A stretch of DNA of 64,000 nt from a virus: IMG/VR virus record IMGVR_UViG_3300008117_007749; one strand, 5' to 3'. Under the pieces are notes generated by a model. It saw only the letters and a list, made by a program, of their open reading frames with translations, was not told the DNA's origin and ran no database searches. Shown in pieces: positions 14,170 to 61,488 of this stretch (positions are counted from its first letter, which is position 1; each line of letters opens with the position of its first letter). A program made the translations under genes and the position numbers.

Positions 14170-14442
14170 CTAAGCTTCCTGTAAAAAACTCAACATAATA
14201 TCAATGTTTTCTTTTGAAAATCCGTCTAAAGGAGTACCTCCGGATTTCAGATAGTTATTGTGCAATTCATTATACTCATCTTCAGTATAAAAATTACCAT
14301 CAATTCCCTCAATTACATTAGTGTGGTGTGAAGATATAGTTTTATTTTGAAGTCTGGTTTCTCCATAAGCAGGACCAACAGGACCAACTAATTCAGTACC
14401 AGATATTTCTTCATTAAATTGTTTCCATTTTTTAATCTTCAT
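14170..14442 (-). CDS. Hypothetical protein with N-terminal MKIKKWKQFNEE tag
   Basis: ORF and shared N-terminal motif. Confidence 0.6.
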   Translation of the reverse strand: MKIKKWKQFNEEISGTELVGPVGPAYGETRLQNKTISSHHTNVIEGIDGNFYTEDEYNELHNNYLKSGGTPLDGFSKENIDIMLSFLQEA

Positions 14443-14891
14443 TAACTGGCTTCAATTTTTTCAAAGTACTCATCATGTTCTTCTAATGAATAATGGTCTT
14501 TCTTTAAGTTATATATTAAATTATAAAGAAATTTTTCATGTAAATTATGTTTTATACTACCTTTCATGATAATTACTGATGAATCTTTCTCATAGTCATT
14601 TTCAACATCTATTATTTCTAAACCTAACTTACCATCTCTATCTGTTAAATTACAAATTACTTTTTTACCTAGTACTATCATTTCTTTTATTTTAGTAGAA
14701 ACTACGCTTTTTGAAAGTAACATATAATCTCTGTTATTAGATAATTGAGTTTCATTATAAAGATCTAAAAAATTATGTTCTTTTGATGTTAATTTAGACT
14801 TTTGACAAATTTTATTCAAAATTCTTTTAATCTCAATCTCTTTAAGTGATTCTCCAAGTATGTAATGTTGTATCATTTTTCTAATATTCAT
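14442..14891 (-). CDS. Hypothetical protein with DUF6576-like helical motif
   Basis: EIKRILNKICQKSKLTSKEHNFL resembles IDxILDKI...SLTxxEKxFL. Confidence 0.5.
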   Translation of the reverse strand: MNIRKMIQHYILGESLKEIEIKRILNKICQKSKLTSKEHNFLDLYNETQLSNNRDYMLLSKSVVSTKIKEMIVLGKKVICNLTDRDGKLGLEIIDVENDYEKDSSVIIMKGSIKHNLHEKFLYNLIYNLKKDHYSLEEHDEYFEKIEAS

Positions 14892-14953
14892 AAGTTATAT
14901 ATTATAAGAAGTATCTATGTTTTTTATATATACTTTGAAATTGAAAGTTTTTT

Positions 14954-17900
14954 ATGGATAAACAGTTATTAAAAGCTTTAGAGAATGTTGCCTTCGCTTT
15001 GGAAGACATGACGGAAGCATTAAAGAATAGAGAAAAAAAAGGTGGAGGCTCTGCTACTGGAGCTGCTCTTACTAAAGGAGATTTTGGTGATCAACTAAAA
15101 GAAATTAGTGTTGAGATAAAATCAATCAAAAAAGACACTCAGGAGATACTTCGCCAACAACAAACAATTCTTTCTATGCAAAAGAAAAAGTCTAGTGATA
15201 AAAAATCTGGACTTTTTGAGGAAGCAGGTGGTGACAAGAAAAAGGAAAGTAGTCTTAAAAAAGGAGTAGCGACTATCATATTAATAGCGATTGCTGTATT
15301 AGCAATAGGAATGGCTTTCAAATTAGTCGGTAAAATAGATTTTCTTTCTGTTATTGGACTTGGATTAGCCATATTGGCAATTTCTTTTGCTTTTGAAAAA
15401 GTAGCGAAATTAAAACTCGAAGTAAAAGAAGTATTAGTTGCTTCTTTAGCATTAGTTCTAATGGCGGTTGCAATAACTATGTCTTCATGGATTTTAAAAC
15501 TAATAACACCAATTGGATTCGCACAAATGGTTACAGCTATTTTAATTGCTGCAATGTTTGCGGTGATGGCATCCAAATTAGAAAAGGTATTTATTGCAGT
15601 AGCGGTCTTTCATAGACTAAGAGTTAAAAAAACTGCCTTAGTTTTAGCATTAGTTTCAATAGCAGCAGCAATTACCGCATCATCCTGGATTTTACTACTT
15701 GTAACTCCAATTGGATTTCTACAAGCACTCACAGCAATATTAATAGCAGGTGTTTTTGCAGTAATAGCATTCAACTTTGAAAAGATAGCACTGGGAGTAG
15801 CTGCCTTTGATAAACTAAATGTTAAAAAATCAGCTTTAATATTGACACTCGTTGGAATTGCTACCGCAATTACTTTATCATCTTGGATTATGGCCTTAAT
15901 TATACCTATGAGTTTCGGAAAAGCTATAACAGCCATTTTAATATCCGCAATATTTTTAATTATATCATTAAATTTTGAAAAAATTGCACTGGGTATAGCA
16001 GCATTTGATAAATTAAAAATTAAGAAAAGTGTTTTATTACTCACTCTTGTTGGAATCGCTACAGCAATAACTCTTTCATCATGGGTGATGGCTTTAATTA
16101 TACCTACAACACTATCACAATTTTTGACAGCACTTGGAATAGCTCTATTGTTCGCACTTATGTCCTATGTAATGCCAGAACTAGCAGCTGGTTTATATAT
16201 AATTGATAAAATACTTGGTAAAAAAGGAGTATTCTTATTCCCACTTGTATTTGTAGCAATTTCAGCTGCTATAATGCTCTCTTCTCACATATTAAATATG
16301 AGCGCTGACATTGCACTCGGAAAAATTCTACAGATAGCAGTATTTGGAGTAGCACTGGCTATTATTGTATTAGCAATGTTACCTTCCGTATTATTAGTTG
16401 GGGCGGTAGCTGCTTCAGGGGTTGGAGCAGGAGCAATAGGATTAGGTGTTTTAATGATACCACTAATAGCAGCTGCTATTATGGCATCTTCTCACATTTT
16501 GAATGCCGGAACGTATTCGAAATATCCAAGTTGGAAATGGTCTCTTAGTGTAGGACTATCAATGACTATATTCGGAGCAGCAGTAGTTGCTTTAGGAGCA
16601 ATAGCATTGACAGGTATCGGAATCGCAGCGGTTGCTGCAGGAATGTTACTAGTTCCATTAGTTGCCCTATCTATAGTTTTAGTTGATAAAGTAATAAGAA
16701 AAGGTAAATATGATAAATATCCAAGTTTAAAATGGATACTAAGTGTAGGATCTGTAATGACTGGATTTGCAATTGCTATAGTAGGACTAGGAGCTTTAGC
16801 ACTGACAGGTATAGGGTTAGTAGCTGTTTTAGCAGGAGTATTAGTTGTCCCAATGATTGCAAAGACAATTGTTAAAGTAGATGGTATAATCAGAAAAGGT
16901 AAATATGATAAATATCCAGGTTTAAAATGGATATTAAGTGTTGGAACCGTAATGACTGCTTTTGGAGCAGCAGTTGTAACACTAGGTGTATTAGCAATCA
17001 CAGGATTTGGATTAGGAGCAGTAGCGTTGGTGGCTGGCTCATTAGCGGTTTTACTGATAGCAGCGACAATTGTAGAAACTGATAAAATAATAGGTAAGGG
17101 TAAATATGATAAATATCCAGGTTTAAAATGGATATTAAGTGTTGGAGCAGTAATGACTGGATTTGGAGCAGCGGTTGTAACCTTAGGTATATTAGCTATA
17201 ACAGGATTTGGCTTAGGAGCAGTAGCGATGATTGCTGGAGCTGGAGCAGTTATACTAATCGCAGCGACAATTTTAGCAACTGATAAAATAATAGGTAAAG
17301 GTAAATATGATAAATTCCCAGGAGCCAGATGGATTTTGAGTATAGGAGCTCTGTTAGCAATTTTTGGAGCAGCGGTCGTAACTCTCGGTATATTAGCTAT
17401 AACAGGATTTGGATTGGGAGCGTTAGCTATTGTAGTAGGAACAAAAATGGTTCCAAAGATAGCAAAGACGATTGTTGCGGTAGATGAGATACTTTCAAAA
17501 GGAAAATATAATAAAGGTCCAAATTGGCAATGGGCCTCATCAGTTGGATCTTTAATGTTAGTATTCGGAGGAGCTATTCTTGGAGTAGGATTACTAATAG
17601 TATCTAGTTTAGGACTTGGATACGTTGCCATAAAAGCAGGTTCAGCCGCAGTAAAACTAATTGCTCAATCAATTGTAGATGTTGCTGGTATTTTTGCAAA
17701 AAGTGGAGCTGTTTGGAAACAAGGTCCAACTAAGAAGTGGGCTGAAGGTGTTTCAATAGCATTAGGCGCATTTTCACCTATTTATAAAATGTTGATGAGC
17801 GGTGGAATTATGTCTATATTTGCTGGATCAGGACCAAGTCCTACGAAATTCGCAGCTGCAATAAGGACTATTTCTCAGGGTATTGTTGATGCTGCTAACT

Positions 17901-19099: not shown

Positions 19100-19122
19100 A
19101 CAATTTTAAAATAAAAAATATA

Positions 19123-26760: not shown

Positions 26761-26806
26761 CTATATATTAAAAACCTATTTCTCAATCGTCAAAATTAAT
26801 ATATAA
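26761..26806. promoter_or_regulatory. Back-to-back TTAATATATA motifs driving divergent genes
   Basis: Minus-strand TTAATATATAG at 26761-26771 and plus-strand TTAATATATAA at 26796-26806. Confidence 0.65.
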
Positions 26807-26809: not shown

Positions 26810-27178
26810 ATGAGTAAAATTTATAATTATGACGATTTTCTTAATGAAGAGTTTTTTAAAAAACTTTTTGGTAGAAATAAAAAGTCTGAAAAAAAATCCA
26901 ATACTGATATATGCGTTGAGGAGATAATAAATTTTCTTGCAGAAAACGGAATTTACACATGGGATGATTTTCTTTATTCAAAAAAGACCGATAAGTATAT
27001 TATAAACAAAATAATTGATGGTTCTGCTCAAAATATGAAGGACGTTGAGGAAATAAGATTCAGACTAAGAATCGAGTTATCAAGCAGACAACAACTAAAA
27101 GAATGGATGAAAGAATTAGAAGCTCAAGAAGAGTATGAGAAATGTGCTAAAATTTTAAAAGCAATAAATAATAAATAA
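26810..27178 (+). CDS. Hypothetical protein with N-terminal tag (MSKIYNYDDFLNEE) and C-terminal UVR-like motif
   Basis: LEAQEEYEKCAKILKAI. Confidence 0.6.
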   Translation: MSKIYNYDDFLNEEFFKKLFGRNKKSEKKSNTDICVEEIINFLAENGIYTWDDFLYSKKTDKYIINKIIDGSAQNMKDVEEIRFRLRIELSSRQQLKEWMKELEAQEEYEKCAKILKAINNK

Positions 27179-27193: not shown

Positions 27194-28129
27194 ATGAAAA
27201 TTAAAAAACTCTCTGAAAAGGATAAAAATAAAGACCAAGAGGCTTTATTCAACGTAAAGTCTTTAGAAAAAGATAAAGAAAACAGACCTTCTTTCAAAAC
27301 TTCAGTTGAAGACCAAGAAAAAATTGAAAAAGAATTCAAAAAGAATTCTGATAAAGTTGAAAAGTTTGAATCTTTCATTGATATTCATATAGATAATATT
27401 GAAAATTTAGAAATTAAACACGATGAAGATAACTTTGATGCAGACTACGAAGAAAGTGAAACATCTGGTTGTGGATGTTGTAGTGACTGCACGGGAGAGG
27501 AAGGTTGTTATTGTGGATGTGATGACTGCAAATGTGATACTGATGAAAATGTTAAAAAAGCATCTGAATTTGTAAATGTTCTGTTTTCAGAGAGTTTAAA
27601 GTATCATTTAGAAAATAATAAACCAATAACTGAAAATATTTTCAGACCAGGCTCAGAAGCTTTCTATCAAGTTATTAAAGAGGCTCGCCAATTATTTGAT
27701 GAAGGAAAAGTCAAATTATGTGAAATAGATAAAGAAATTTATGAATCAACAGAAATTGGTAAATTTGGTTACTTTAACGGAGAATTAGTTCCTTTGGATT
27801 TACCTATGGAAAATATAGAATTTGTTTCTGAAGCAGAATATAAAGGAAAAGAAGTGAAATTAAATCACCCAATGAGAAATAGCGGCGGTGGAAAAAAATA
27901 CTATGTTTATGTTAAAAATCCAAAAACAGGAAATGTTAAAAAGATTTCTTTCGGTGATGTTCACGGTGGCTTAACAGCTAAAGTTAGTAATCCAGACGCT
28001 AGAAAGTCATTTGCGGCTCGTCATAAATGTTCAACTAAGAAAGATAAGACTAAAGCTGGATACTGGGCGTGTCGTCTGACGAAATACGGACATTTGTGGG
28101 GTGGTAAAACTTATCCTGGATTCTGGTAA
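27194..28129 (+). CDS. Phage protein with Cys-rich segment and basic C-terminal domain common in T4-like phages
   Basis: GCGCCSDC...CYCGCDDCKC; AEYKGKEVKLN...KKISFGD...ARKSFAARHKC...AGYWAC. Confidence 0.65.
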   Translation: MKIKKLSEKDKNKDQEALFNVKSLEKDKENRPSFKTSVEDQEKIEKEFKKNSDKVEKFESFIDIHIDNIENLEIKHDEDNFDADYEESETSGCGCCSDCTGEEGCYCGCDDCKCDTDENVKKASEFVNVLFSESLKYHLENNKPITENIFRPGSEAFYQVIKEARQLFDEGKVKLCEIDKEIYESTEIGKFGYFNGELVPLDLPMENIEFVSEAEYKGKEVKLNHPMRNSGGGKKYYVYVKNPKTGNVKKISFGDVHGGLTAKVSNPDARKSFAARHKCSTKKDKTKAGYWACRLTKYGHLWGGKTYPGFW

Positions 28130-36289: not shown

Positions 36290-36823
36290 CTATTTTTGGT
36301 CTTCTTGTTTAATATTCTGTGTATTTTTAGTAATTTCTTTCTTTAAATCTTCCATTTTTTTAGTATGTTTAGTTTTAAAGTCTTGTAACTCTTTCATCTT
36401 ATTGGCTATTTTAGCATCGTAACTACCCATTCTCGACTTAATATCATTCAATTTAAATGATATACGTTGTTTAATATCAGACCCCTGCGCTAAAGACATT
36501 TCACTATTAAAATCATCTAATTTAATTTTATCATCTGTTTTATTTTTTTGAATATCAAATATTTCTTTTTGAAGTCTTAATAATTTTGTAAGTTCCGATA
36601 AAAACGGATTTTTATCCTTTTCTTCACCTAATATCTTTTTTAAACCTTCTTCAATTTCTAAATTATTAGAAGTGCTACTATAGAGAGATTCAATTTTAGA
36701 CTTTTTTTGATTATATTCTAATAAATTTTGTGACACATCATTTGTCTGTTCCTTTGCAAGTTTAACATCAGGTTTATCAGTGTCTTTAATTTCAATATCT
36801 TCAAAGTATTTTAAGTATTTCAT
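36290..36823 (-). CDS. Coiled-coil protein with N-terminal MKYLKYFE tag
   Basis: Heptad-rich; shared N-terminal motif. Confidence 0.6.
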   Translation of the reverse strand: MKYLKYFEDIEIKDTDKPDVKLAKEQTNDVSQNLLEYNQKKSKIESLYSSTSNNLEIEEGLKKILGEEKDKNPFLSELTKLLRLQKEIFDIQKNKTDDKIKLDDFNSEMSLAQGSDIKQRISFKLNDIKSRMGSYDAKIANKMKELQDFKTKHTKKMEDLKKEITKNTQNIKQEDQK

Positions 36824-39696
36824 TTTGATTTTGAAATATTTTCATCAGATTTTAGACTTTCTAAAATATTTTTAAAACCAGAGGTTTGGTCAATGGCAAC
36901 TCTCAATTTAGCCATATCCGTATTTTTGTAAAGAGTATATGTTTCTTTATCTTTCTCTCCACTCTGTTTAGATAAAAAGTGAATATCTTTAACTGAAATT
37001 GTTTTTCCTTTTTCATCATTTTTTCCCTTTGAATCAATAGCGTTAATTTCAAATTTTTCTTTTCTTTTAAGTATAAAATCTATTAAATCTTGTTTTTTAA
37101 TTTTTGTCCCAAATATTCCAAAGGATTCTTTTTCTAATTTGACCTGGGCTCCATTTTTAATGGAATCTTCTCTACTCACAGTAGGTGATCCTCCCTTAAT
37201 TTGAGACTTTAAATAAGCATTGTGATAGTAAAAAGTTCTTGAATAAGTCAGATAATAGAAATCTTTTTGAAAATCTTGAATATTAAAATAAAATCTAACA
37301 TCTTCTCCCTTTTCGTTGGTTGCCTTTATCTGAAAAGACATTCCATCAAATTTACCAGAATTCAATTCATCTTTGACTTCCTCTCTTCTAACAAAAACAT
37401 ACTTCAATTCTTCAATAGCATCAGCAATAGGACCAATATCTTCAGTATCTGGATTTCCAGTTCTTGGATCTTTATCACTAACACTCTCATCTTTGATATC
37501 AACGTCATCAGTCACTTCACCAAAATATTTGTTAAGGTATTTCTTTTGAGTTCCCGCAGTACTACCGGAATCACTAGATTTATATAATTCTTCACCATCT
37601 AATAAGTCTAAAATCATCTGTCTAAGAATAGCACCAGCGTTATCTTTAACTCTATCACCATTTCTTATTGATGTGCCTTTATCAAATACCTCTTCATATT
37701 CTTTGAAAACATCAAATACATAATTTTCCCACTTATTAAATAGTCTATTATTTCTATAAGGACCATCTCCTTTTCCCGACATTTCACCAGATGTGTTACC
37801 AAAGGCGGTCCATTGATTCATAGTAATGGCATTTAATTTACCATCTGTTCTTCCTGAAAAAGGTATAGCATTTTTAGTATGTATTTTATAAGCTCTATTA
37901 AATATTCTAAAGATTTCAATAATAGGTCCGATTCCTTGAATAACTATTCGACCTTCATTATCTTTTTTATACTCTTTAACTTTCTCTTCAACTTCATCTA
38001 CATCATCTTGTGAAATTGCCCAATATTTTAAGTCAAAGTTCTTATTGTAATATTCTCTAATTTGGTCAGATACAGACTTTTTAGTTTCACCTTCACCCTC
38101 ACCTTCTTCAGCTTCATTTATTTTACGAATAAATGAATCATATTTTAGAAGAACTTTTTCATTTTTCTTTACTTCTTCACCTTCTTCTTTCTTAGGCTCT
38201 ATTTTCTTAATTTGAGATTTTGTAAGAACTTTCATCGCCTCAACATATTCCTTAAGTGGTTTTCCTAAATCACCTAAACCACCGTAAAGATTTTCACCAT
38301 CAAATTGCATCGCTCTTTTAGTAAAGATTGCAATTTTTTGAGACACGTTTATAGTAGTTCCAGTATTATCTAAAACTTCTAGACTCTCTTTATACAGTGG
38401 ATCTTGAGCCGCATTTAATGTATTCTTTTTATCACCAACTAAAAATCGATTAACTTCAAAGAAAAGACTATAAATAACTCTTTTTGCACGAGCTGTAACT
38501 TTTTTATCTTTAACAACAGCTTGTGATGTAACCGCATTTAAGAAATCAGTTGTCACCGAAATGTCTTTATCTTTAGACTCTAAAAATTCACAAGACTTTT
38601 TAAGTTTAGCAAAGGCCTGAGTTAGAAAATCTTCACCGGTTTTGATATTGGCTCTTTCCTGACCACCACCAGCGCCTATTGGCGTTTTACTACCTTCTTT
38701 ATTACTACCACCTAAAGCATCTTCGAATAAGAACATAAAGTCCTCCATTACAAGTACTATTTCAGCTGGTAGCGTTTGAGTATTTTTGTCTTTTCCTGGC
38801 TCAAAAAACTCAGCGAATTTCTTTTTTTCACCTTTATGTGTTACAATTTGATTCTTTGCCAAGATATCTTTTTCTTTTAACTTGAATTTATTTGTTTGTA
38901 AATCTGTTGCTATTTTAGTCAATGTATCACCTTGTTTTGTAACATATGTATGTTTTTTCGAATCAGCTTGAGGTTTTGCATTTATTGTAACTTTTTTATA
39001 ATAAGCCAAAATAAGAGCAAGTGACTTTAATGATTTAATCATTGTTGTGTAAATAGGTTTTCCATCAGAACCGGTCTGACCATCAGCTGACTGAGAATCT
39101 TCTCCTTGACCATCACCTTCTCCTTCTTCACCCTCACTGAGTTCTTCTTCTCTTGATCTCCCACCTTCATCATCTTTGAATTGGTCAAGCCATTTTCTAA
39201 ATTCTTCTAATTTATCCAACAACTCTTCTTTTACATCTTGACTTTCTTCATCAACCTGAATTGCATCTATCTCGAAAATTGTTTCATCACAGATATTTTT
39301 AATATCACCAACTCTAAGACCATCTTCGACTGCTTGAGTCAAAGCTCTCAGAAGAGTTGCTATTTTCATTCTAGATATTCTAGAACCTGTTTCAGAATCT
39401 TCATTTGAAATTTCTTCAATAGATGTTTGCATTATATAATTGAAATGATTCTTCAATCTTCTACCTTGAATATCTATTCTAAGAGCGTTTGCATTTTCTT
39501 GAACTTTTCTTAATGTGGAGTTTATAAGTCTTCCCAATAAAGAGTCTCCCCAGTTAATCTCGTTACCTAATGGCCCAGTATTTGGACTACTTTCATAAAC
39601 TTTCTGCAAATTTTTATAAAAGAGTTCTTCTTGTTGTTTTTCTCTAATCTGAGACCTTTTTTGTAAGTAATTATCTTTGTGATTTAAATACTTCAT
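36820..39696 (-). CDS. Large probable internal virion protein with LysM-like segment
   Basis: HTYVTKQGDTLTKIA; acidic linkers; internal KYDSFIRKINEAE. Start at 39696 after TTAATATATAG. Confidence 0.55.
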   Translation of the reverse strand: MKYLNHKDNYLQKRSQIREKQQEELFYKNLQKVYESSPNTGPLGNEINWGDSLLGRLINSTLRKVQENANALRIDIQGRRLKNHFNYIMQTSIEEISNEDSETGSRISRMKIATLLRALTQAVEDGLRVGDIKNICDETIFEIDAIQVDEESQDVKEELLDKLEEFRKWLDQFKDDEGGRSREEELSEGEEGEGDGQGEDSQSADGQTGSDGKPIYTTMIKSLKSLALILAYYKKVTINAKPQADSKKHTYVTKQGDTLTKIATDLQTNKFKLKEKDILAKNQIVTHKGEKKKFAEFFEPGKDKNTQTLPAEIVLVMEDFMFLFEDALGGSNKEGSKTPIGAGGGQERANIKTGEDFLTQAFAKLKKSCEFLESKDKDISVTTDFLNAVTSQAVVKDKKVTARAKRVIYSLFFEVNRFLVGDKKNTLNAAQDPLYKESLEVLDNTGTTINVSQKIAIFTKRAMQFDGENLYGGLGDLGKPLKEYVEAMKVLTKSQIKKIEPKKEEGEEVKKNEKVLLKYDSFIRKINEAEEGEGEGETKKSVSDQIREYYNKNFDLKYWAISQDDVDEVEEKVKEYKKDNEGRIVIQGIGPIIEIFRIFNRAYKIHTKNAIPFSGRTDGKLNAITMNQWTAFGNTSGEMSGKGDGPYRNNRLFNKWENYVFDVFKEYEEVFDKGTSIRNGDRVKDNAGAILRQMILDLLDGEELYKSSDSGSTAGTQKKYLNKYFGEVTDDVDIKDESVSDKDPRTGNPDTEDIGPIADAIEELKYVFVRREEVKDELNSGKFDGMSFQIKATNEKGEDVRFYFNIQDFQKDFYYLTYSRTFYYHNAYLKSQIKGGSPTVSREDSIKNGAQVKLEKESFGIFGTKIKKQDLIDFILKRKEKFEINAIDSKGKNDEKGKTISVKDIHFLSKQSGEKDKETYTLYKNTDMAKLRVAIDQTSGFKNILESLKSDENISKSK

Positions 39697-42976: not shown

Positions 42977-45118
42977 ATGACTAATATTAGAGAAGAAAAA
43001 GAAAAACAGATGATATTTACTACCAAATTGGTAGATGAATCAACTGATAAGATAAATGACGGTGTTGTTTTAAAACGATATCAAAATCCATGGCTAAAAA
43101 GTGAAGTAGGTCTAAGAAGATCGGGAGTAACTTTCAGAATGACTCCCGATGAACAACAAGAGTATGTAAGATGTGCAATAGATGTTCATTACTTTGTTGA
43201 AAAATATTGTAAAGTTAAAAGAGAAGATGGTTCAATTGGAAATATTTTCCTAAGAGATTATCAGAAAGATATATTAGATAACTTTGTAAATAGTAGATTT
43301 AATATACTTATGGCCTCTCGACAAGTAGGAAAAACAGTCTCTTCTTCAATTTTTATGTTACATAAAATTCTTTTTGATAATGATAAAAACATAATGATTG
43401 TTGCAAACAAAGGAGATACAGCTGTAGAAATCGTCGATAAAATAAAATCAATTTATACATTGCTTCCATTCTTCTTAAAACCAGGTATAAAAACTTGGAA
43501 TCAAAAGTCACTAACATTTGAGAATGGATGTAGAATAAAAACATCAGCTAGAACAAAAACTCCAGCAATCGGTTTCACCATTGACGTTCTTTATTTAGAT
43601 GAGTTTGCTCATATTCCTTCGAATATCATCGAACCATATTATACCGCTGCTTTCCCAACTACAGCTGCTGTACAAAACTCAAAAATTATAATTACTTCCA
43701 CTCCTAATGGTATGAATCTATTTCATAAACTTTTAACAGACGCTGAAAGACCAGAGGGAGATCCATTAAGGAATAACTATAAAGCAATGAGAGTCTATTG
43801 GTATCAAGTACCTGGTAGATTTGTAACATATTTAAGACTAAACTCACATAAGCTATATGAACATGGATTAACAAAAGAGGAGATTTTTGAAATTTGCAGA
43901 GAAAGATGGGAAAATAAAACAAAAATTGAAATAGGATATAACTCTGACTTACAAAAAGATGTAATTCATATCTATAATAATGAAAATTGCTCTGATGAAG
44001 ATGTCAAATCAATGACATTTATAGATAACAAAGGATTTGAAGTTCCTATTAGATTTTTAGCGGAAGTGACCACTTGGAAAGAAGAAGCAATAAAAGACAT
44101 TGGAGGAGAAGACGCATTTAATCAAGAATACGGTCTAAGGTTTATAAATGCTTCAAAATCACTATTAAATGAAGGAATAATAGATGAGCTACTTAGAAAC
44201 AAAAAGAACTATGAATTTGAAGAAATTTACGAATTTGATAAAAAAATAAAATTTAGTTATAGAGATTTGAAATGGGTAGATGATGATAATATATTCTTAC
44301 CAGTAAGAAGAAAAGAATATAAAATAGTTATATCAGTGGATATATCCGAAGGTTTAGGTCAAGACTACTCAGTGATAAATATTTTTAAAATAAGCGAAAA
44401 GACTAAAGAAACAATAGAATCTCAAAAAGATTCTTATAAATCCATAGTTGATTTCTTTAGACTTGAACAAGTAGGAATTTTCAGAAGCAATCTAGTATCA
44501 GTAAAACAATTATCCGAGTTCTTATACATTTTGGCATTTGAATATCTAAATCCTGAAAATGTAAAAATAGTTCTTGAATTAAATAACTATGGAAACACCC
44601 TTTTAGCTGAAATGCCTCACGTTTTTGATGGAAATAATAACTACGGATCATCTATCTTTGTAAGATATAAACATAGAGCGGATTCGACAGAAGAAAAAAT
44701 TGGACTCAAAGTTGGTGAAAATAAGAATCTTTTGGTGAAAGATTACCAAGATTTAATGTATGCTAAATCATTTGCTATCAATAACGAGGATACTATAAGA
44801 GAAATTACAACATTTGTTAAACACATAACAACAGCTGGTAACGTGAGATACGCAGCAGACGTTGGACATGATGATACAGTAATGACTATAGTAAATGCTA
44901 CTACAGTTTTTCAAAAAAATGAGTTTAAGGAAATGGTTGAAGAATATTCTAACAAACAATTAGATAAAGAAATGCTATCATATATTAAAGAATGTATGAA
45001 TAGACTTGACTATGTTGAGGGTGTTGATTACGGACAAGTATTGAGAATTAGAAGACAAAATCAAAATCAAAGAAATATGAACAAAAACTCAGGAATTAAC
45101 TGGTTTGGTAAAAATTAA
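42977..45118 (+). CDS. Terminase large subunit (gp17-like)
   Basis: LRDYQ, ASRQVGKT (Walker A), LYLDEFAH (Walker B), ITSTPNG, FNQEY, SVDISEGLGQDYS, ELNNYG, GHDD. Confidence 0.95.
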   Translation: MTNIREEKEKQMIFTTKLVDESTDKINDGVVLKRYQNPWLKSEVGLRRSGVTFRMTPDEQQEYVRCAIDVHYFVEKYCKVKREDGSIGNIFLRDYQKDILDNFVNSRFNILMASRQVGKTVSSSIFMLHKILFDNDKNIMIVANKGDTAVEIVDKIKSIYTLLPFFLKPGIKTWNQKSLTFENGCRIKTSARTKTPAIGFTIDVLYLDEFAHIPSNIIEPYYTAAFPTTAAVQNSKIIITSTPNGMNLFHKLLTDAERPEGDPLRNNYKAMRVYWYQVPGRFVTYLRLNSHKLYEHGLTKEEIFEICRERWENKTKIEIGYNSDLQKDVIHIYNNENCSDEDVKSMTFIDNKGFEVPIRFLAEVTTWKEEAIKDIGGEDAFNQEYGLRFINASKSLLNEGIIDELLRNKKNYEFEEIYEFDKKIKFSYRDLKWVDDDNIFLPVRRKEYKIVISVDISEGLGQDYSVINIFKISEKTKETIESQKDSYKSIVDFFRLEQVGIFRSNLVSVKQLSEFLYILAFEYLNPENVKIVLELNNYGNTLLAEMPHVFDGNNNYGSSIFVRYKHRADSTEEKIGLKVGENKNLLVKDYQDLMYAKSFAINNEDTIREITTFVKHITTAGNVRYAADVGHDDTVMTIVNATTVFQKNEFKEMVEEYSNKQLDKEMLSYIKECMNRLDYVEGVDYGQVLRIRRQNQNQRNMNKNSGINWFGKN

Positions 45119-45399
45119 CCATTTTCTTCCATTGTTACAGACAATCCAGAATTTTGTAATTTTTCTTTCATAGAAGAAATTGTATCAAAATCTCCGTATT
45201 TTACATCACATTTTCCTTTAAAATGGACAATATGAGCACATTGATTTGCTTGCTCAAATTCGTGACCACAGTATTTCATAAGACAATTGATTACATGATC
45301 AAACGTATTATGATCATCATTATGAAGGTCTAATCGATAAGGTTTAGAAAGTAATTCTTTTACTTTACTTTGTGTTTTCTTTTTTGTAATTGTTGCCAT
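45115..45399 (-). CDS. clpS: ATP-dependent Clp protease adaptor ClpS
   Basis: LHNDDHNTFDHVI..L...C.H..EQA..CA..VHFKGKC.V. Confidence 0.85.
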   Translation of the reverse strand: MATITKKKTQSKVKELLSKPYRLDLHNDDHNTFDHVINCLMKYCGHEFEQANQCAHIVHFKGKCDVKYGDFDTISSMKEKLQNSGLSVTMEENG

Positions 45400-46996: not shown

Positions 46997-47752
46997 ATGA
47001 AGCACATTAGAACATTTGAAAGTTATCGTATAAGAAAAAACAGAGAAGAGATTATTAAAGAATCTGTTCTTCAAGTAAACGATATCTATAAAGTTAAGAC
47101 TATGATTGATATTCCACAATCATTAATCAATGCTTATGTTAAAAAAGTAAAAGATACTACAGGTAAAAACTTGAGACAATTTTTTGGAGATGTTGATATC
47201 GCTGAAGAAATTGTTAAGTATATAAACTTGAATAATCTTGATGTTGAAAAACTACCAGGAAATGCTCTCATGGGTGGGGCTCAAGGACAAACTCAAGGAC
47301 AAAATCAGACACAAGTTCAAGTAGAAGGTGGTCAAGAACAAGCTCAAACACAAGAACAAGCTCAAACACAAGGACAAGCTCAAACACAAGGACAAGCTCA
47401 AACACAAGGACAAGCTCAAACACAAGGACAAGCTCAAACACAAGGACAAGCTCAAGGTCAAGGACAAGCTCAAGGTCAAGCTCAAGGTCAAGGACAAGCT
47501 CAGGGTCAAGGACAAGCTCAAGGACAAGCTCAAGGTCAAGGACAAGCTCAAGGTCAAGGACAAGCTCAGGGTCAAGGACAAGCTCAAGAAGGAGAATTTG
47601 AAGAACCACAAGCTCAAGGACAAGCTCAAGGACAAGCTCAGGGTCAAGGACAAGGTCAGGGTCAAGGACAAGCTCAAGGACAAGCTCAAGGACAAGCTCA
47701 AGGACAAGCTCAAGAAGAGGAAGAAGAGGGAGAAGAGGAATTACCAGCTTAA
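46997..47752 (+). CDS. Tagged protein (MKHIRTFESY) with Gln-Gly-Gln-Ala low-complexity tail
   Basis: ORF after TTAATATATAC, followed by a terminator. Confidence 0.75.
   Translation: MKHIRTFESYRIRKNREEIIKESVLQVNDIYKVKTMIDIPQSLINAYVKKVKDTTGKNLRQFFGDVDIAEEIVKYINLNNLDVEKLPGNALMGGAQGQTQGQNQTQVQVEGGQEQAQTQEQAQTQGQAQTQGQAQTQGQAQTQGQAQTQGQAQGQGQAQGQAQGQGQAQGQGQAQGQAQGQGQAQGQGQAQGQGQAQEGEFEEPQAQGQAQGQAQGQGQGQGQGQAQGQAQGQAQGQAQEEEEEGEEELPA
47333..47713 (+). repeat. Coding tandem repeat of 6/12/18-bp units (CAAGCT, CAAGGA, CAAACA, CAAGGT)
   Basis: e.g. (CAAGCTCAAACACAAGGA)n then (CAAGCTCAAGGA/T)n. Confidence 0.95.
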
Positions 47753-47799: not shown

Positions 47800-47815
47800 A
47801 TTTAATATATAGTTT

Positions 47816-48430
47816 ATGAAGTTTATTAAAACATTTGAAAGCTACAATGAAGATACTTTAATCATAGTGGATGTTCAGAAATCATTTAGAAAGTATTTTT
47901 CCGAAATGTATCTAAACGAACTTAAAAAATACTGTAAAAATTTTAATAATGTTTATCAGATTTGGGATAATCATCCGGATGGTAAAAATGTGGATAAAGA
48001 TTATCTATATGATGAGACTCCTGAAATTCCTATCCATAAAGACATTTATCACTTTCCAAATCAAAAAGAATTAATTGAAAAAAGATATAATTACGACGTT
48101 GATGCCGATTTTTACAAGAAAATACTAGATAAAGAAGTTTATGATAAAATTAGTAAAAAAGAAGAGGAAAAAACATTAAAAAAAGGAGATATCTTTGAGA
48201 CAAAGGAGGGAACTATAATCACATTTATAAACAACAATCATGTTTGGTTTCACTGTCCTAAAAAACTATATGATCTTTTAATAGACTTAAAGGGAAGAGA
48301 AGTTACTATTGTTGGTGGAGCTGACGGCGAGTGTCTAGAGGATGTAGTAACAACAGCTGAAAGTTTAGGTGTCAAAATAAAAAGAGATTATAAATACATC
48401 TGGACCGCTACAAGTTGTCCAATAAAGTAG
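47816..48430 (+). CDS. Isochorismatase/nicotinamidase-like cysteine hydrolase with N-terminal tag
   Basis: LIIVDVQKSF, IEK, VGGADGECL (Asp-Lys-Cys triad). Confidence 0.7.
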   Translation: MKFIKTFESYNEDTLIIVDVQKSFRKYFSEMYLNELKKYCKNFNNVYQIWDNHPDGKNVDKDYLYDETPEIPIHKDIYHFPNQKELIEKRYNYDVDADFYKKILDKEVYDKISKKEEEKTLKKGDIFETKEGTIITFINNNHVWFHCPKKLYDLLIDLKGREVTIVGGADGECLEDVVTTAESLGVKIKRDYKYIWTATSCPIK

Positions 48431-53017: not shown

Positions 53018-53383
53018 ATGTATTTAAATAATAAAGATCTATACGTAGAAATTATCGTATCAAAAGCACAAGGCAAACTTACCAGAAACGCCGAAAAAAT
53101 GTTAGAACTCCTAGCCAAAAAAACAATAAAAAAAATGAGATACTGGTCAAATGATGACAAATTAGACTGTTATCAATCTGGACTTTTAGATATGTTCCAA
53201 AACTGGTACAATTTTAATGAAGACAAATCAGTTAACGCATTTGCTTACTTCACCGAAGTATTTAAAAGAGGAATAGCCAAAGGATTTAATGAAATCTATA
53301 AAAAGAAAGGTGATAACGAAAATCAGATTAAATTAATATCAATTGAAGGAAGTAACGATGGACAAGGTCTTCACTCAATCTAA
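53018..53383 (+). CDS. Late-transcription sigma factor (gp55-like, minimal)
   Basis: YLNNKDL...NFNEDKSVNAFAYFTEV..RGI resembles gp55 YVNNKEL...NFD..K..NP.AY.T. Confidence 0.75.
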   Translation: MYLNNKDLYVEIIVSKAQGKLTRNAEKMLELLAKKTIKKMRYWSNDDKLDCYQSGLLDMFQNWYNFNEDKSVNAFAYFTEVFKRGIAKGFNEIYKKKGDNENQIKLISIEGSNDGQGLHSI

Positions 53384-56472: not shown

Positions 56473-56801
56473 TCTAATAGATTGTCAATATTAAAGTCTC
56501 TATAAACTTGTTTTGTTATATCACCTAAACCAGTATCAAGTAATTTATCAAAATTTGAATCTGTTGAGTCAATCTCATAATCTTTAAGTGTTTCTAAATT
56601 TTTATTATACCACATATAAAAGAAATCACATGCAGTCTCAACTATATCTTCATAAGAAGGTTCCGAAACTGAATCATAAGCACAAAATAAAATTCTAACA
56701 TCTAATGGCTGTTCAGTGTCATAGATAATATCAATTGATTTATTCCAATTTAAGTTTATAGTAAATCCTAATTTTTCAATTCTATCTAAATGATCAAACA
56801 T
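56469..56801 (-). CDS. Hypothetical protein with C-terminal YRDFNIDNLL motif
   Basis: ORF in operon. Confidence 0.6.
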   Translation of the reverse strand: MFDHLDRIEKLGFTINLNWNKSIDIIYDTEQPLDVRILFCAYDSVSEPSYEDIVETACDFFYMWYNKNLETLKDYEIDSTDSNFDKLLDTGLGDITKQVYRDFNIDNLLD

Positions 56802-57024
56802 TTTTTAATATTTTACTAAGTTTATTCTCTCTTTTATCTTCTATTTCAATTGGTTCTACTATTATCTCACCGTTTGATATTCTAATTTCCCATTTGTTAC
56901 CAGTGACATCATCAAGTAGAGCTAATTTTTTTATAACACAATAACCATCTGGTTCTATTCTAAGAACAGAATCACCAGTTGAACTATTCACATTAAATAT
57001 ATTAGGTTGAAGTTTAACAGTCAT
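56794..57024 (-). CDS. Small beta-rich protein with C-terminal KRENKLSKIL motif
   Basis: ORF in operon. Confidence 0.6.
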   Translation of the reverse strand: MTVKLQPNIFNVNSSTGDSVLRIEPDGYCVIKKLALLDDVTGNKWEIRISNGEIIVEPIEIEDKRENKLSKILKNV

Positions 57025-57965
57025 TATAGTTTAATACCGGTTTTGGGATCGTAATTCATAATTAACAACTCAATACCTTTAGCTTGTTCGGATTTTAAAT
57101 CAGAGTTGTTTCCACCTTGAGCCGAACTTCTAAATACTTCTTTCTCTGTCCAAACGTATTTATCTTTAGGTAATAACTCTTCTAAAAGAGGAAAATAATA
57201 ATAAGAAAGTGACCAACGACACTTAGTCTTTTTGATTAACTCCAATAGTCTTCTATGAGAAGCTGGTCCAAACATTCCTTCTTTGTCAGCACCATACCAA
57301 AACAATCTTTTAGCGTCATCTTCACCATTTTCATCTGGTCTGAAGTATGGTGGATCCAAATAAAGATAAGTATCTTCTGAATCATATTTTGTAATAAGTT
57401 CTTCAAAATCAATATTTAAGAAATCAGTAATTGATTGTAATTTAGGAGTATATTTATTTTTTTTCAATTTATCAATAAGAACTTCTAATTTCAAACGGTC
57501 TTTATCTTTTTTATAACCATTGAAACCAGCACCTCGAGGATAAACAGAGTTATGAGCAGAAGTGATAAGAAAAGCATAAATAGCGGCTTTCTCAAAATCA
57601 CCAATTTCAAAATTCATATCATCTAAGAAATCATTTTTTTGATATTCTTTATAAATCTTTTTATAGAAATCCCATTTCTTTAATGGATCTGTTTCTTCTG
57701 TGAAAAGAAGAGTATTTTTTAAATTCTCTAAATAAGGTAGGAACTCCTCAGGTTGTGATGAACACTTGTATAAGTTCACCTGATGACGATTTTTATCATT
57801 ATAGACAACTACATCGAATTTAAGTTGATCGTCATCCATATACGTTCCCATTGAACCAGAAAAAGGTTCTAAATACGTTTTAATTCCAGTTTTTGGGATT
57901 TTTGTATTGATTAATTCTTGAAATGCTGAGGAACTCTTACCTCCGAAATAACTTATTACCGCCAT
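57024..57965 (-). CDS. DNA adenine methyltransferase (D12/Dam family)
   Basis: SYFGGKS, YLEPFSGS, VYND, YLDPPY, LSY, ELLIMNY. Confidence 0.88.
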   Translation of the reverse strand: MAVISYFGGKSSSAFQELINTKIPKTGIKTYLEPFSGSMGTYMDDDQLKFDVVVYNDKNRHQVNLYKCSSQPEEFLPYLENLKNTLLFTEETDPLKKWDFYKKIYKEYQKNDFLDDMNFEIGDFEKAAIYAFLITSAHNSVYPRGAGFNGYKKDKDRLKLEVLIDKLKKNKYTPKLQSITDFLNIDFEELITKYDSEDTYLYLDPPYFRPDENGEDDAKRLFWYGADKEGMFGPASHRRLLELIKKTKCRWSLSYYYFPLLEELLPKDKYVWTEKEVFRSSAQGGNNSDLKSEQAKGIELLIMNYDPKTGIKL

Positions 57966-57966
57966 T

Positions 57967-58485
57967 TTATTTATTTTGATTTTTAATTTGTTCTTCTAGT
58001 GAAGGTCTTTCATTTTGTTGTCTTAATTCTTCTCTAATCTTCATTAAAATTTTACCTAAATGATTTTCACCAATACTATTACATTTTGGACAAGAACACT
58101 GACCCCAAAAGACATCGTGCCAAAAGTTACCCTCTATAAGTTCTAATTTACCAGTATCCAATAACATCTCGCATAATTTAGGATCTTTGAATTTTTCACG
58201 AATTCCCCAATTCATAAAGTCTAATTTTTTTTCTTCCCAATCTTGTCTAACTTTTACTCGACTTCCTAATTTTTTTACATCACCAGCATCTGGTATTCTA
58301 GCAATTAACTCTCTAAAATCAGGAGCAGTATAATAAACACCATCAATGAATTGCATTTGAGTAACTTTTAGAGCAACATAATAGTGTTCTACAGAAGGAT
58401 ATGTAATTCCTTTATGTTCAATTTTACAGGGATAAAAGTTTGAAAGGAAATAATAACGACCTCTAAAAGAATTGATATAACTCAT
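57967..58485 (-). CDS. NADAR (YbiA-like) family protein
   Basis: FLSNFYP, YPSVEHYY.A.K, K.LG..V..R.DW, KF, LL.TG..ELIEGN.W.D.FWG, GENHLGKILM.IR. Confidence 0.9.
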   Translation of the reverse strand: MSYINSFRGRYYFLSNFYPCKIEHKGITYPSVEHYYVALKVTQMQFIDGVYYTAPDFRELIARIPDAGDVKKLGSRVKVRQDWEEKKLDFMNWGIREKFKDPKLCEMLLDTGKLELIEGNFWHDVFWGQCSCPKCNSIGENHLGKILMKIREELRQQNERPSLEEQIKNQNK

Positions 58486-58506
58486 AATTCTTATATGTTA
58501 TAAATT

Positions 58507-58531
58507 AAAAAAGTCCACCTTAGGCGGACTT
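58507..58531 (-). terminator. Terminator of tmRNA
   Basis: AAGTCCGCCT/AGGTGGACTT followed by T run on the minus strand. Confidence 0.75.
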
Positions 58532-58536
58532 AATTT

Positions 58537-58913
58537 TAGTGGAGATGACCGGCTCTGCCTCCGGTGTCTTCCCTAGCTAACAATAATTATTCATTTACAG
58601 GCTTAGTGAAATTTTTCTAAACTCACAAAATATTTAGTTGAACTAACCCATCACTCTAACAATTCTGGTTTCACATTTTAAACTGTGTGATTCAGCTGGA
58701 GAATTTTTGCGATTAGCTTAAAAGCTTAAACTACTGCTAGCTCTTCTGCCTTAAGCATGTTGTTTTGTAACGCCGCTACTAAATCTTCACGGGATGCTAC
58801 TTCATTTGTTTTGCCATTTACGACTTTTGTTACCTAATTTATTAGTCGGTCATTTAACCACCCGACACCTGCATAACTACCACTACTCTATGAATCTATT
58901 CTATGACATCCCC
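58537..58913 (-). ncRNA. ssrA: tmRNA (ssrA)
   Basis: 5' GGGGAUG pairs with 3' CAUCUCC-A including G3:U; GAC + ACCGG/CCGGU T-arm; about 375 nt; internal tag ORF 58815-58726 after GUAAAU. Confidence 0.88.
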
Positions 58914-58974
58914 ATAGTCATTGTAATTATTTTACAAATGTATATATAATATTTGAAAATAAGAAAAAGTTTAA

Positions 58975-59544
58975 TTAAAATGGCATATTATCATCTTCTA
59001 AACCTTCATCTAATGTAAAACCAAACGAAAGTATTCCACCACCGGATTTCGATTGCCAAATGTCAAATTCAGCATCATATTGAGCTAATATATCTCTTTT
59101 AAGTTTGTTAGCTACTTCAAAAACTTTAATAATACTTCTAAGTGTCTCTTTTTTTGCCATATTAACTTCAATGACAATATCCTCATTTCTTTTTGCCGTA
59201 ATCTGAACATTATCAACACCCGAGTTTCTAAACATTTGACGAAGCAAATAAGTTAAATGTTGCACGTCATCATCATCATCATCATCATCTGATTCATATC
59301 CATAGTCATCATCTTCATCATCGAATTTAGGATTTGATGATTTTCTCGAGTTATCACGCGTACTTTCATCGTCATACCAATCATCATAATCTCCATAATC
59401 TTTAGTAGAATCATCATCATATCCATAATCATCTTCTGGCCAACGAGCTTCATTTTTCTTATTAGCAGAAAGTTCGTTATTAAGATGACTAAATTCGTCT
59501 TCTCTGATATTTTCTAAATATTTTATAAATGTTTTTATTTTCAT
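58975..59544 (-). CDS. Acidic (Asp-rich) protein with N-terminal tag MKIKTFIKYLE
   Basis: ORF; D/Y-rich low-complexity middle. Confidence 0.65.
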   Translation of the reverse strand: MKIKTFIKYLENIREDEFSHLNNELSANKKNEARWPEDDYGYDDDSTKDYGDYDDWYDDESTRDNSRKSSNPKFDDEDDDYGYESDDDDDDDDVQHLTYLLRQMFRNSGVDNVQITAKRNEDIVIEVNMAKKETLRSIIKVFEVANKLKRDILAQYDAEFDIWQSKSGGGILSFGFTLDEGLEDDNMPF

Positions 59545-59545
59545 A

Positions 59546-61087
59546 TTACTTTAGCTCTATTTTAAAATATGTTTCATCAAAGATTCCTAAATCCTCTATT
59601 TTGTACTTGTTAAGTATTGTCTGTATTCTTATAAGTGAATCATAAATTTCACCCATATCAGTCTCTTCTAAATCTAAACTAACAAATATTCTATCATCTT
59701 TACCAATGACCTTTACATCAATCCCAAATACATTCTTTTTAATCTCGTTTATAAGATTCTTATGTTTTGCAAATAATTCTTCATTATAACCAACCTTTCT
59801 TTTAATCGGAAGTTTATTCCAATCAACTTTAACAGAAGCCTCTGCTAACTTAATGAGGTAAGTCATATTTTGCATTTCTGTTCCTCTGTGTTCGTTATAA
59901 TAACCAACAGATATATTAGTACATTCAGCAATATCCTCCATTAGAGAAGCCGAATCAGTATAAACACCAGTTGTATCTAATGAAAGATTTAAACCGCTTT
60001 TGTTATATTCGTCACAAAGTGCTTGTCCAAACTCATTTGAACAACATTGTCTTCCCAACTGATGAGTAATCACAGATGTAGTTCTTCTTCTATCAAATGA
60101 TACACAAGCTTTAACATCAGTAAGATATTCACATCTATCATATATTGAAGAGAGTGCATTTGAACCAATTCCACCTCTTTCCTCACCAATAAAGAAATAG
60201 TAAATTCCCGGCACATTGTTAGTCATCATATATAACATAACAGCAGTTCCTGCTTTATCATCGGCTCCTAAAATTGAAGATCCATCAGTGTAGATATGCT
60301 CATCACCAGATCCAGTTTTAATTAGTCTAAAAGAATATCCCTCTTCCGATACTCTACCATTTGCTTGAAAAAGTTTAGTAGTTTTTTGCTCTCTATCGGC
60401 GGTATCTAAGTGACAAGTAAACATTATTGTTGGTTTATCACTTCCTATTATTTTATAATAATTACCAACTTCGTCTCTTTTTAAGTCTTTTGGTAAAAAC
60501 TGTAATACTTCTTTTTCATGTCTACAATCATCAAAATGAGGATAAGTTTTAGTAGTCAAAGACAGAAAAGTTGCCTTAACATCCTTTGGATTATAAGTAA
60601 AAGAAGGCACTTGTATTCTTTGAGCGGAAGTCGTAGATTCATCTCCGATATTATCAGAAACCATATCATTGTATTGATAAATAAAAGACTTTATTTCATC
60701 TTCAGTAAGAAGACCAGGCCAATAATATCTAAAGAACTTACCAATCTTCATATCAAATTTTTTACCACCAATAGTTACCTCAAAACAATAAGCCTTATTT
60801 GAAATTGTAACATCTGTAATTCCTAAACCATTTTGATACTTAGATCCAGGCTCACCCAACCAAAGCATTTCAAATGCAAGATAACTATCATTATCTTCCA
60901 TTTTCTTAAGAACTTTTTCTAATTCACTAGAAATTTTAATTCTAGCACTCCTATCTACGTCTTTTGGTGCTTCTTTTTTGAAAACATCTTCTTTAGATTT
61001 ATATGCACCAGTTGGTATATTTCTATTTGGATCAGTTATAGACTGTGTTCCAGCCTCAAATATTTGATTAAATTTAAATAAATTCAT
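59546..61087 (-). CDS. M28/M20-clan zinc peptidase paralog with N-terminal tag and extra domain
   Basis: Same motifs as 1109..2173 (TCHLDTAD, ILGADDKAG, IGEERG, ECTNISVGYY.EH). Confidence 0.8.
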   Translation of the reverse strand: MNLFKFNQIFEAGTQSITDPNRNIPTGAYKSKEDVFKKEAPKDVDRSARIKISSELEKVLKKMEDNDSYLAFEMLWLGEPGSKYQNGLGITDVTISNKAYCFEVTIGGKKFDMKIGKFFRYYWPGLLTEDEIKSFIYQYNDMVSDNIGDESTTSAQRIQVPSFTYNPKDVKATFLSLTTKTYPHFDDCRHEKEVLQFLPKDLKRDEVGNYYKIIGSDKPTIMFTCHLDTADREQKTTKLFQANGRVSEEGYSFRLIKTGSGDEHIYTDGSSILGADDKAGTAVMLYMMTNNVPGIYYFFIGEERGGIGSNALSSIYDRCEYLTDVKACVSFDRRRTTSVITHQLGRQCCSNEFGQALCDEYNKSGLNLSLDTTGVYTDSASLMEDIAECTNISVGYYNEHRGTEMQNMTYLIKLAEASVKVDWNKLPIKRKVGYNEELFAKHKNLINEIKKNVFGIDVKVIGKDDRIFVSLDLEETDMGEIYDSLIRIQTILNKYKIEDLGIFDETYFKIELK

Positions 61088-61104
61088 ATCAGTATATATT
61101 AAAT

Positions 61105-61488
61105 TTAAATAGTGATTTCTTCCGCATTTATATAATCAACTTTAACTTGACCATCATTCATACCAGGTTCTTTTTTGACAAACTTTCTTTGACAATAAAC
61201 CACTTTGACAGAAGGTTCTTTAGCTGCTTTTGAATTCTTTTTAGCAATTTCAGCGGCATATTTTAATATTTCAGGTGTAGGTAAGTTTTCTCTAACTCTT
61301 ATAACAACATGAGAACCAGGAACACCTTTAACGTGCATCCAAATATCTTCATCCTCAGCAACATTAAAAGTTAAATAGTCATTTGATTTAGCATCTCTTC
61401 CATATTGTAGAAAAAAACCATCAACTTCAATCTTTTTGATATCTGGGAATTTAGGCTTTTTACTTTCAAAATATTTCAAATATTTCAT
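61105..61488 (-). CDS. Stand-alone NFACT-R (RqcH/Rqc2 RNA-binding, DUF814-type) domain with N-terminal tag
   Basis: GRDAKSNDYLT...D.DIWMHVKGVPGSHVVIR...AA.IA...SKA...V.YCQRKFVKK..G...GQV. Confidence 0.85.
   Translation of the reverse strand: MKYLKYFESKKPKFPDIKKIEVDGFFLQYGRDAKSNDYLTFNVAEDEDIWMHVKGVPGSHVVIRVRENLPTPEILKYAAEIAKKNSKAAKEPSVKVVYCQRKFVKKEPGMNDGQVKVDYINAEEITI

Follow-up and report, generated by a model that had tools for sequence, protein, structure and literature searches.

A short N-terminal peptide on unrelated late proteins of a huge phage resembles the capsid targeting sequence of phage T4

The 64,000-nucleotide (nt) stretch of viral DNA analysed here (IMG/VR virus record IMGVR_UViG_3300008117_007749; hereafter the window) corresponds to bases 15189-79188, read on the reverse strand, of a virus contig of 122,303 bp with 29% GC, and it encodes a set of unrelated proteins that open with the same short peptide, a candidate tag for loading proteins into the phage head. 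It also encodes a major capsid protein of the T4 gp23 type, the C-terminal part of a prohead protease-scaffold fusion, a large terminase subunit, a tail sheath, a tail tube, a head-closure protein, and a gp55-like late sigma factor (Table 1); the portal of the phage is gp20-like (Pfam Portal_T4, 1.2e-56). The capsid protein shares 77%, 76%, 53%, 52%, and 38% identity with those of LR745206.1, LR756502.1, LR756504.1, LR756501.1, and LR756500.1, all of them uncultured phage genomes of 462-735 kb, which identifies the contig as a fragment of an uncultured huge phage of ~635 kb in the Mahaphage/Lak group, among the largest phages known. Capsid identity to the Lak megaphages and to the Tenacibaculum jumbo phage PTm1 is ~30%. 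The best bacterial homologues of a SET-domain protein encoded in the window belong to Winogradskyella, which points to a host in the family Flavobacteriaceae.

A T4-type scaffold core, a gp20-type portal, and a gp23-type shell are all present in this lineage. The N-terminal protease domain of the fusion and its scaffold repeats are encoded immediately past the end of the window. Seven family members combined in a profile match the structure of T4 gp21 (5jbl, 1.7e-7), and the catalytic His (G-E-F-D-H-P) and Ser (S-S-R-A-A-G) are invariant in all seven sequences. Residues 42-45 of the capsid propeptide read I-N-E-N throughout an alignment of the lineage.

Table 1. Genes with tags or tag-like motifs, and head, regulatory, and quality-control genes. 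Positions are those of the window unless marked as genome (contig) positions; aa, amino acids; ORF, open reading frame.
Product	Position (strand)	Tag or motif	Late promoter word or operon context	Further evidence
M28 peptidase paralogue, 354 aa	1109..2173 (-)	weak tag-like start	5 nt upstream	Pfam M28, 3e-6
90-aa protein	14170..14442 (-)	class B, W-K-Q-F-N-E-E	downstream of promoter-bearing gene 14442-14891	
122-aa protein	26810..27178 (+)	class B, Y-D-D-F-L-N-E-E	4 nt upstream	
311-aa protein	27194..28129 (+)	degenerate N-terminal tag; tag-like copy at residue 54		a relative has two small tagged ORFs at the locus
177-aa protein, no assigned function	36290..36823 (-)	class A, M-K-Y-L-K-Y-F-E-D	operon-internal, behind promoter of 958-aa gene	
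958-aa late protein	36820..39696 (-)	internal class B-like motif and I-N-E-A at about residue 520 (~38113-38145)	23 nt upstream	no family match
ClpS	45115-45399 (-)			
251-aa protein, no assigned function	46997..47752 (+)	class A, M-K-H-I-R-T-F-E-S-Y	24 nt upstream	
204-aa protein, isochorismatase-like candidate	47816..48430 (+)	class A, M-K-F-I-K-T-F-E-S-Y	4 nt upstream	Atlas isochorismatase clusters, 0.86
SET-domain methyltransferase, 150 aa	48438..48890 (+)	class A, M-K-Y-L-K-F-F-E-N-F		Pfam SET, 1.8e-11
gp55-like late sigma factor	53018..53383 (+)			PHROG 234, late sigma transcription factor, 6.7e-7
189-aa protein, no assigned function	58975..59544 (-)	loose, class B-like, F-I-K-Y-L-E	shares late unit with M28-like peptidase gene	
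M28-like peptidase, 513 aa	59546..61087 (-)	loose, M-N-L-F-K-F-N-Q-I-F-E-A, opening an extension of ~42 aa	5 nt upstream	PHROG 4191, peptidase, 1.4e-65
NFACT-R protein (stand-alone), 127 aa	61105..61488 (-)	class A, M-K-Y-L-K-Y-F-E-S	61501-61493, 4 nt before ATG	Pfam NFACT-R_1, 1.1e-14
Major capsid protein, T4 gp23-type	61563..63269 (-)		27 nt upstream	Pfam Gp23, 6.9e-27
Prohead protease-scaffold fusion (697 aa), C-terminal 216 aa	63349..64000 (-)			gp21-family profile versus 5jbl
Protease domain and scaffold repeats of the fusion	genome 13747-15188			
RNase R	genome 11278-13155 (-)			

The initial annotation of the window had described a single N-terminal pattern on about 11 unrelated proteins. 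All nine N-termini that it listed are present at their respective starts, seven of them as strict and two as loose fits, and the tag itself is thus confirmed; the single pattern, by contrast, turned out to merge two flavours. Class A was scored as ^M-[KR]-x-[ILFM]-[KR]-x-[FYW]-[EDN] (^ marking the start of the protein) and class B as aromatic-x-x-aromatic-[ILVFMN]-x-E within ~15 residues of the start; five N-termini in the window fit class A and two fit class B. The true start of the NFACT-R gene is 61488 rather than 61527. The looser or internal copies that had been added to the list (ORFs starting at 27194, 39696, and 41474) are internal or close to the C-terminus, in the last case 20 residues from it, and none represents an N-terminal tag.

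In the complete genome of the relative LR745206.1 (634,780 bp; 911 ORFs of >=50 aa predicted with a simple caller), class A takes the form M-[K/R]-[Y/H]-[L/I]-[K/R]-x-[F/Y]-[E/N], often followed by E/S or x-[F/Y], and occurs 45 times versus 0.2 times in shuffled sequences; class B (aromatic-x-x-aromatic-[I/L/V/N]-x-E in the first 15 residues) occurs 26 times versus 3.2. Together, 71 of the 911 ORFs (~8%) are tagged, so that the originally reported set is only a small share of the ~70 tagged genes of such a genome. The tagged proteins have a median length of 151 aa in class A and of 265 aa (maximum 663 aa) in class B. The residue that follows the Glu of the tag is Ser in 45% of class A and 35% of class B members, compared with a background of 7%.

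A lack of enrichment over shuffled sequences had been named beforehand as one outcome that would refute the proposal. The strict pattern of the initial annotation is found in five of the 134 ORFs of the contig (seven if a downstream Met is allowed as start) versus 0.01 in shuffled N-termini, and it is absent from 637 internal Met peptides and 33,265 arbitrary positions of the contig. Without any preselected motif, the column information of all N-termini exceeds that of within-sequence shuffles by 6.6, 5.0, and 3.7 standard deviations at positions 2, 4, and 7. A degenerate DNA version of the pattern has seven matches in the contig and 25, 26, 19, and 11 in four related huge-phage genomes, among which the complete LR756504.1 (636 kb) carries 19 strict tags; reversed or reordered control patterns yield 0-1 matches. 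In PTm1, which shares GC content, host class, and the type of protease-scaffold fusion with this lineage, the DNA pattern has no match and the tag is not enriched, so neither AT-richness nor translation in Flavobacteriia accounts for the motif. Low-GC genomes often have Lys at position 2 and AT-rich codons, but with close to zero matches in all of these controls, a shared N-terminus that arose by chance or from an AT-rich composition with Lys-rich N-termini is so improbable that it can be dismissed.

The tag is portable, as had been proposed. Clustered by BLAST without their first 20 residues, the 71 tagged proteins of LR745206.1 form 66 groups and the 24 of the contig form 23, which rules out common descent of the tagged proteins. 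Among the 66 metagenomic homologues of the SET protein listed (54-81% identity), 44 retain the class A tag, whereas in most of the remaining 22 the N-terminus is unrelated, though of similar length, and the alignment resumes at an acidic linker; the untagged homologues include two named Winogradskyella proteins (58% identity), showing that bacterial homologues of this enzyme lack the tag. Of the close metagenomic orthologues of the NFACT-R protein (120 sequences), most carry class A and a minority class B on the same downstream residues; the two classes are interchangeable. In the two closest relatives (LR745206.1 and LR756502.1), the orthologue of the M28-like peptidase has no tagged extension, which shows that tags are gained or lost on orthologous proteins.

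Several lines of evidence show that selection acts on the peptide rather than on an RNA or DNA element. The tag of the 204-aa protein is kept in 106 of 120 orthologues with K/R, F/Y, and L/I exchanges, and orthologues of the 189-aa protein retain aromatic-x-x-aromatic-L-E. In the SET family, tag columns that had not been used to select the sequences are nearly invariant (Tyr 3, Asn 9, aromatic 10) and position 6 is free; mean entropy is 0.68 bits in the tag, compared with 1.38 in the linker and 0.92 in the SET domain. An AlphaFold model gives the SET domain a mean pLDDT (the per-residue confidence of the model) of 84 and residues 1-9 values below 50, and it depicts the tag of this protein as a free, disordered peptide outside the fold. 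The use of synonymous codons in the tags (K, L, I, Y, E, R, and N) equals that of the entire genome, with a marginal deviation for Phe (p = 0.03). This normal codon use, together with the tags of genes inside operons, rules out a DNA or RNA cassette or a translational operator.

The tagged genes are probably expressed late in infection, judging from their promoters. Of the 55 copies of the word T-[A/T]-ATATATA in the contig, 50 stand directly before the start of an ORF. The genes preceded by it include those for the capsid protein, portal, sheath, head-closure protein, and large structural proteins. The word was not seen before genes with N-termini resembling those of replication and nucleotide-metabolism proteins, a group in which only the clamp loader and SbcD were confirmed by searches; the clamp loader gene has only a distant copy, 58 nt upstream. 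Given the gp55-like sigma factor that the phage encodes, the word is best read as the late promoter, a relative of that of T4. Copies are located at two favoured distances from the ATG, 4-8 nt and 18-32 nt (for example at 61493-61501, 47803-47811, 26797-26805, and 63297-63305 of the window), and the shorter spacing implies nearly leaderless late mRNAs. In LR745206.1, the word lies within 45 nt of 37 of the 71 tagged but only 147 of the 840 untagged ORFs (p = 4e-10), and 65 tagged ORFs (92%) belong to a unit headed by the word, compared with 285 untagged ones (p = 2e-22); the corresponding figures for the contig are 13 of 13 and 71 of 121. Tags also occur on operon-internal genes, such as that of the 177-aa protein, whose start overlaps the stop codon of the gene upstream, and are therefore not merely part of a promoter-plus-start cassette.

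The short spacing raises the question of whether the motif is an element of late-gene expression, in which a favoured start of the coding sequence, acting at the level of RNA or nascent peptide, would aid the translation of near-leaderless mRNAs. In many tagged genes only 4-8 nt separate the promoter word from the ATG, which leaves the mRNA almost no leader, and the codons of the tags are AT-rich. A strict tie to this spacing is weak, with 12 of 18 tagged versus 11 of 28 untagged promoter-bearing genes, and neither the eleven untagged genes with the same spacing nor the several tagged genes that are operon-internal or overlap an upstream stop codon fit such a role. The genome-typical synonymous codons, the absence of the motif from PTm1, with equal GC content and host class, and the conserved F/Y, L/I, and K/R exchanges, which point to recognition of a peptide, make this explanation quite improbable.

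The identifiable cargo candidates in the window are the SET, NFACT-R, and M28-like proteins; most tagged proteins have no Pfam family, and for six tagged ORFs there was no Pfam match even at loose thresholds. Pfam confirms the SET and NFACT-R labels of the initial annotation, and the M28 label is backed by PHROG 4191 and by the paralogue that matches Pfam M28. The cysteine hydrolase (the 204-aa protein) has no Pfam match and retains a weak lead from the Atlas isochorismatase clusters; a homologue search yielded close phage orthologues only, with more than 1,000 from metagenomes and no bacterial homologue for comparison. The LysM label was not confirmed, since scans of tagged ORFs detected no LysM domain. 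The families seen once each in a set of 70 tagged proteins from LR745206.1 are represented by one SMODS-associated NUDIX protein (4e-30), one T4-type RNA ligase (8e-21), one each of GH108 and M15 wall hydrolases, an RNase T-type exonuclease, and a methyltransferase, and one protein with a weak 2H/Acb1-like match.

A precedent for such a tag exists in T4, whose internal proteins IPI, IPII, IPIII, and Alt, as Mullaney and Black reportedly described in 1996, carry a capsid targeting sequence (CTS) that the prohead protease gp21 cleaves off. This peptide of ~10 residues also loads foreign proteins into heads (PMC9026906, PMC3012670, bioRxiv 2021.01.19.427310); residues 4 and 7 are required for targeting and residues 8 and 10 for processing (PMC9026906). 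Like the tags described here, it is short, N-terminal, and borne by unrelated proteins, with M-K at the start, a hydrophobic or aromatic residue at each of positions 4 and 7, and Glu at the end; in class A, positions 4 and 7 are [L/I] and [F/Y], followed by Glu. The class B pattern, which was derived from tags of huge phages only, selects four ORFs of T4, two of which are ipII and ipIII, annotated as internal virion proteins.

The same pattern recurs in the coiled repeat scaffold of the huge phages. Residues ~290-440 of the protease-scaffold fusion consist of eleven tandem repeats of 14 residues with the core Y-S-E-Y-[I/L/V]-A-E (Tandem Repeats Finder: period 42 bp, 10.1 copies, genome 14646-15068, i.e., ~120-540 bp past the end of the window). 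Four relatives have 11-14 such repeats; those of LR756500.1 are degenerate, and PTm1 has none. The core of the repeat conforms to class B and shares five of its seven residues with the T4 CTS. When the T4 proteome (50,611 positions) was scanned with a matrix derived solely from 58 repeat cores, the targeting sequences of ipII and ipIII came out on top with 12.0 bits, ahead of the next match with 9.0 bits, and the known maturation site of T4 gp23 fits the same pattern.

The tag is thus real, portable, under selection at the level of the peptide, and, judging from its promoters, expressed late, and it resembles both the T4 CTS and the phage's own scaffold repeat in a lineage equipped with T4-type head machinery. 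The shared N-terminus is probably, though by no means certainly, a capsid-loading tag of the T4 CTS type that has expanded to ~70 genes per genome in this lineage. By analogy with T4, tagged proteins would be produced late, from the gp55-type promoter that also serves head and tail genes, and their free amphipathic tag of 8-14 residues would dock on the scaffold core, a protein with the gp21-type protease at one end and eleven CTS-like repeats in its middle. The shell would close around the core and the docked cargo, and the protease would then cut behind the terminal Glu of every scaffold repeat and every tag, clearing the scaffold and freeing the cargo. The excess of Ser behind the Glu of the tags and the invariant I-N-E-N of the capsid propeptide are indirect signs of such a cut. 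The cargo, which includes host-derived and counter-defence-type enzymes, would stay in the head and enter the next cell together with the DNA; cleavage after Glu, docking, retention, and injection are all modelled on the T4 system.

The timing of expression is in line with this proposal. T4 IPI and Alt are synthesized late and packaged, to act in the next cell. The putative cargo enzymes would be most useful at the onset of infection and yet are made late, which follows the same logic, and their late synthesis would make most sense if they were carried into the next cell.

Several observations weigh against head loading. The tagged proteins have a median isoelectric point (pI) of 5.0, only 7-15% of them exceed a pI of 8, and membrane-like segments are rare, whereas the T4 internal proteins IPI-III are small, highly basic, and associated with DNA. 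The T4 CTS also loads acidic foreign proteins (PMC9026906), so an acidic cargo is no bar to the mechanism. A load of ~70 proteins, some of them with 400-660 aa, is far above anything shown for T4, and the tagged wall hydrolases could be ordinary late lysis enzymes. Class A lacks the classic [L/I]-x-E cleavage site, which leaves the position of the cut uncertain. As a single sequence, the protease scores 21 bits in Pfam, below the cut-off, and as lone query in a phmmer search of the PDB it had no match. The fit of the phage's own tags to the repeat matrix is loose: the top 40 matches include six N-terminal ones versus 1.9 expected, and the best scores are internal or C-terminal in other proteins. 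With an enrichment of only ~3-fold, the matrix fails as a finder of tags, and the likeness therefore lies in the pattern (two aromatic residues at a distance of three, followed by a hydrophobic residue and Glu) and not in exact residues. A literature search found no virion proteome of this uncultured lineage.

The likeness to the scaffold repeat would also fit a tag that brings proteins to the prohead core as auxiliary constituents of core or scaffold, to be degraded and expelled at maturation instead of being injected. Many class A proteins are small and acidic and have no known domain, as is the case for the T4 core proteins gp67 and gp68. However, recognizable enzymes are among the tagged proteins (SET, NFACT-R, NUDIX, RNA ligase, and wall hydrolases), and to make them only to destroy them would make little sense; moreover, T4 proteins with a targeting sequence are cut once and retained. 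A degraded core component is therefore an unlikely role for the tagged proteins.

It is likewise unlikely that the tag is a docking peptide for another late partner, such as a modifying enzyme, a chaperone or unfoldase, an adaptor like the phage ClpS, or another assembly, without involvement of the head. The gene encoding ClpS adjoins a cluster of tagged genes, but a cut after the Glu of the tag would expose Ser, Asn, or Glu, which are not N-degrons of ClpS. No radical-SAM partner of the tagged genes was found: Pfam Radical_SAM has no match in the 122-kb contig or in LR756504.1, despite the 19 strict tags of the latter, and the single matches in LR745206.1 and LR756502.1 are not adjacent to tag clusters. 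A partner outside the head would also leave the likeness of the tag to the T4 CTS, the scaffold repeats, and the capsid propeptide site unexplained.

If the head-loading interpretation holds, the system shares a gp21-type protease, a gp20-type portal, a gp23-type capsid protein, and gp55-type late transcription with T4 but differs in scale and composition. Only three internal proteins and Alt are named for T4, as opposed to ~70 tagged genes per genome in this lineage, which is known from sequence only. Its tags come in two interchangeable flavours, its protease is fused to a scaffold of CTS-like repeats, and its cargo is mostly acidic, reaches ~660 aa, and includes recognizable enzymes, some of them host-derived. 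The phages phiKZ, 201phi2-1, and SPN3US also combine large heads with dozens of extra proteins that are processed by a gp21-related protease cutting after Glu and are delivered to the host (PMC5694885, PMC7411985), steps that for the present lineage are proposed by analogy. Their propeptides are mostly 80-130 residues long, protein-specific, and cut at [S/A/G]-x-E (PMC5694885, PMC7411985), which differs from the uniform tag of ~10 residues across unrelated proteins found here.

A review of T4 has speculated that the CTS may be a general route by which T4-like phages take new proteins into the head (PMC9026906); the literature searched contained no account of tags like these for huge phages. 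New in the present case are the scale, the two interchangeable flavours, the statistics of the late promoter, the host-derived cargo, and the link to the scaffold repeats. In its most far-reaching form, to which slightly less than even confidence is given, the proposal holds that the largest phages have turned the T4 CTS into a general address label by which the products of ~8% of their genes, enzymes recently acquired from the host and of counter-defence type among them, are loaded and injected, that the label imitates one unit of the scaffold repeat, and that this imitation would explain the origin of the T4 CTS.

If correct, huge phages enter their host cells with a large, ready-made protein toolkit that comprises methyltransferase, ribosome-rescue, nucleotide-signal-degrading, RNA-repair, and wall-degrading activities. 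Their enormous heads would become easier to understand, as would the many "late" accessory genes whose expression otherwise seems mistimed, and a simple sequence rule could predict the virion cargo of uncultured T4-like phages. To our knowledge, no receptor is known for the T4 CTS, a packaging tool in use for 30 years. The match between scaffold repeats and CTS suggests scaffold mimicry as the mechanism, and the tags could serve as portable loading signals for engineered phage particles directed at Bacteroidota.

Several minor observations concern the same genes and genomes. The capsid protein opens with M-S-H-I-R, close to the M-K-H-I-R of a class A tag; this start is not found in more distant relatives and may be a coincidence. 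ClpS, the stand-alone NFACT-R protein, and RNase R form a set of protein and RNA quality-control functions in this phage, with the RNase R gene placed between those of the portal and the protease. The largest relative, LR756501.1 (735 kb), has no strict class A tags but only class B-like ones, and encodes at least nine radical-SAM proteins versus none or one in the other relatives. A Glu/Gly-rich stretch follows the internal I-N-E-A of the 958-aa protein, which may be cut in two by a protease at this motif.

Copies of the repeat core also occur outside the scaffold. LR745206.1 encodes a 491-aa protein with a near-perfect core at its C-terminal end (603271-604746, minus strand) and an 83-aa protein with two such cores (460435-460686, minus strand), which may represent other scaffold-binding modules. 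In T4 itself, gp61.1 (NC_000866.4, 18966-19130, L067), a hypothetical protein of 54 aa that is encoded beside the primase gene and carries no annotation as an internal protein, opens with the very CTS-like M-K-T-F-K-E-F-I-K-E.

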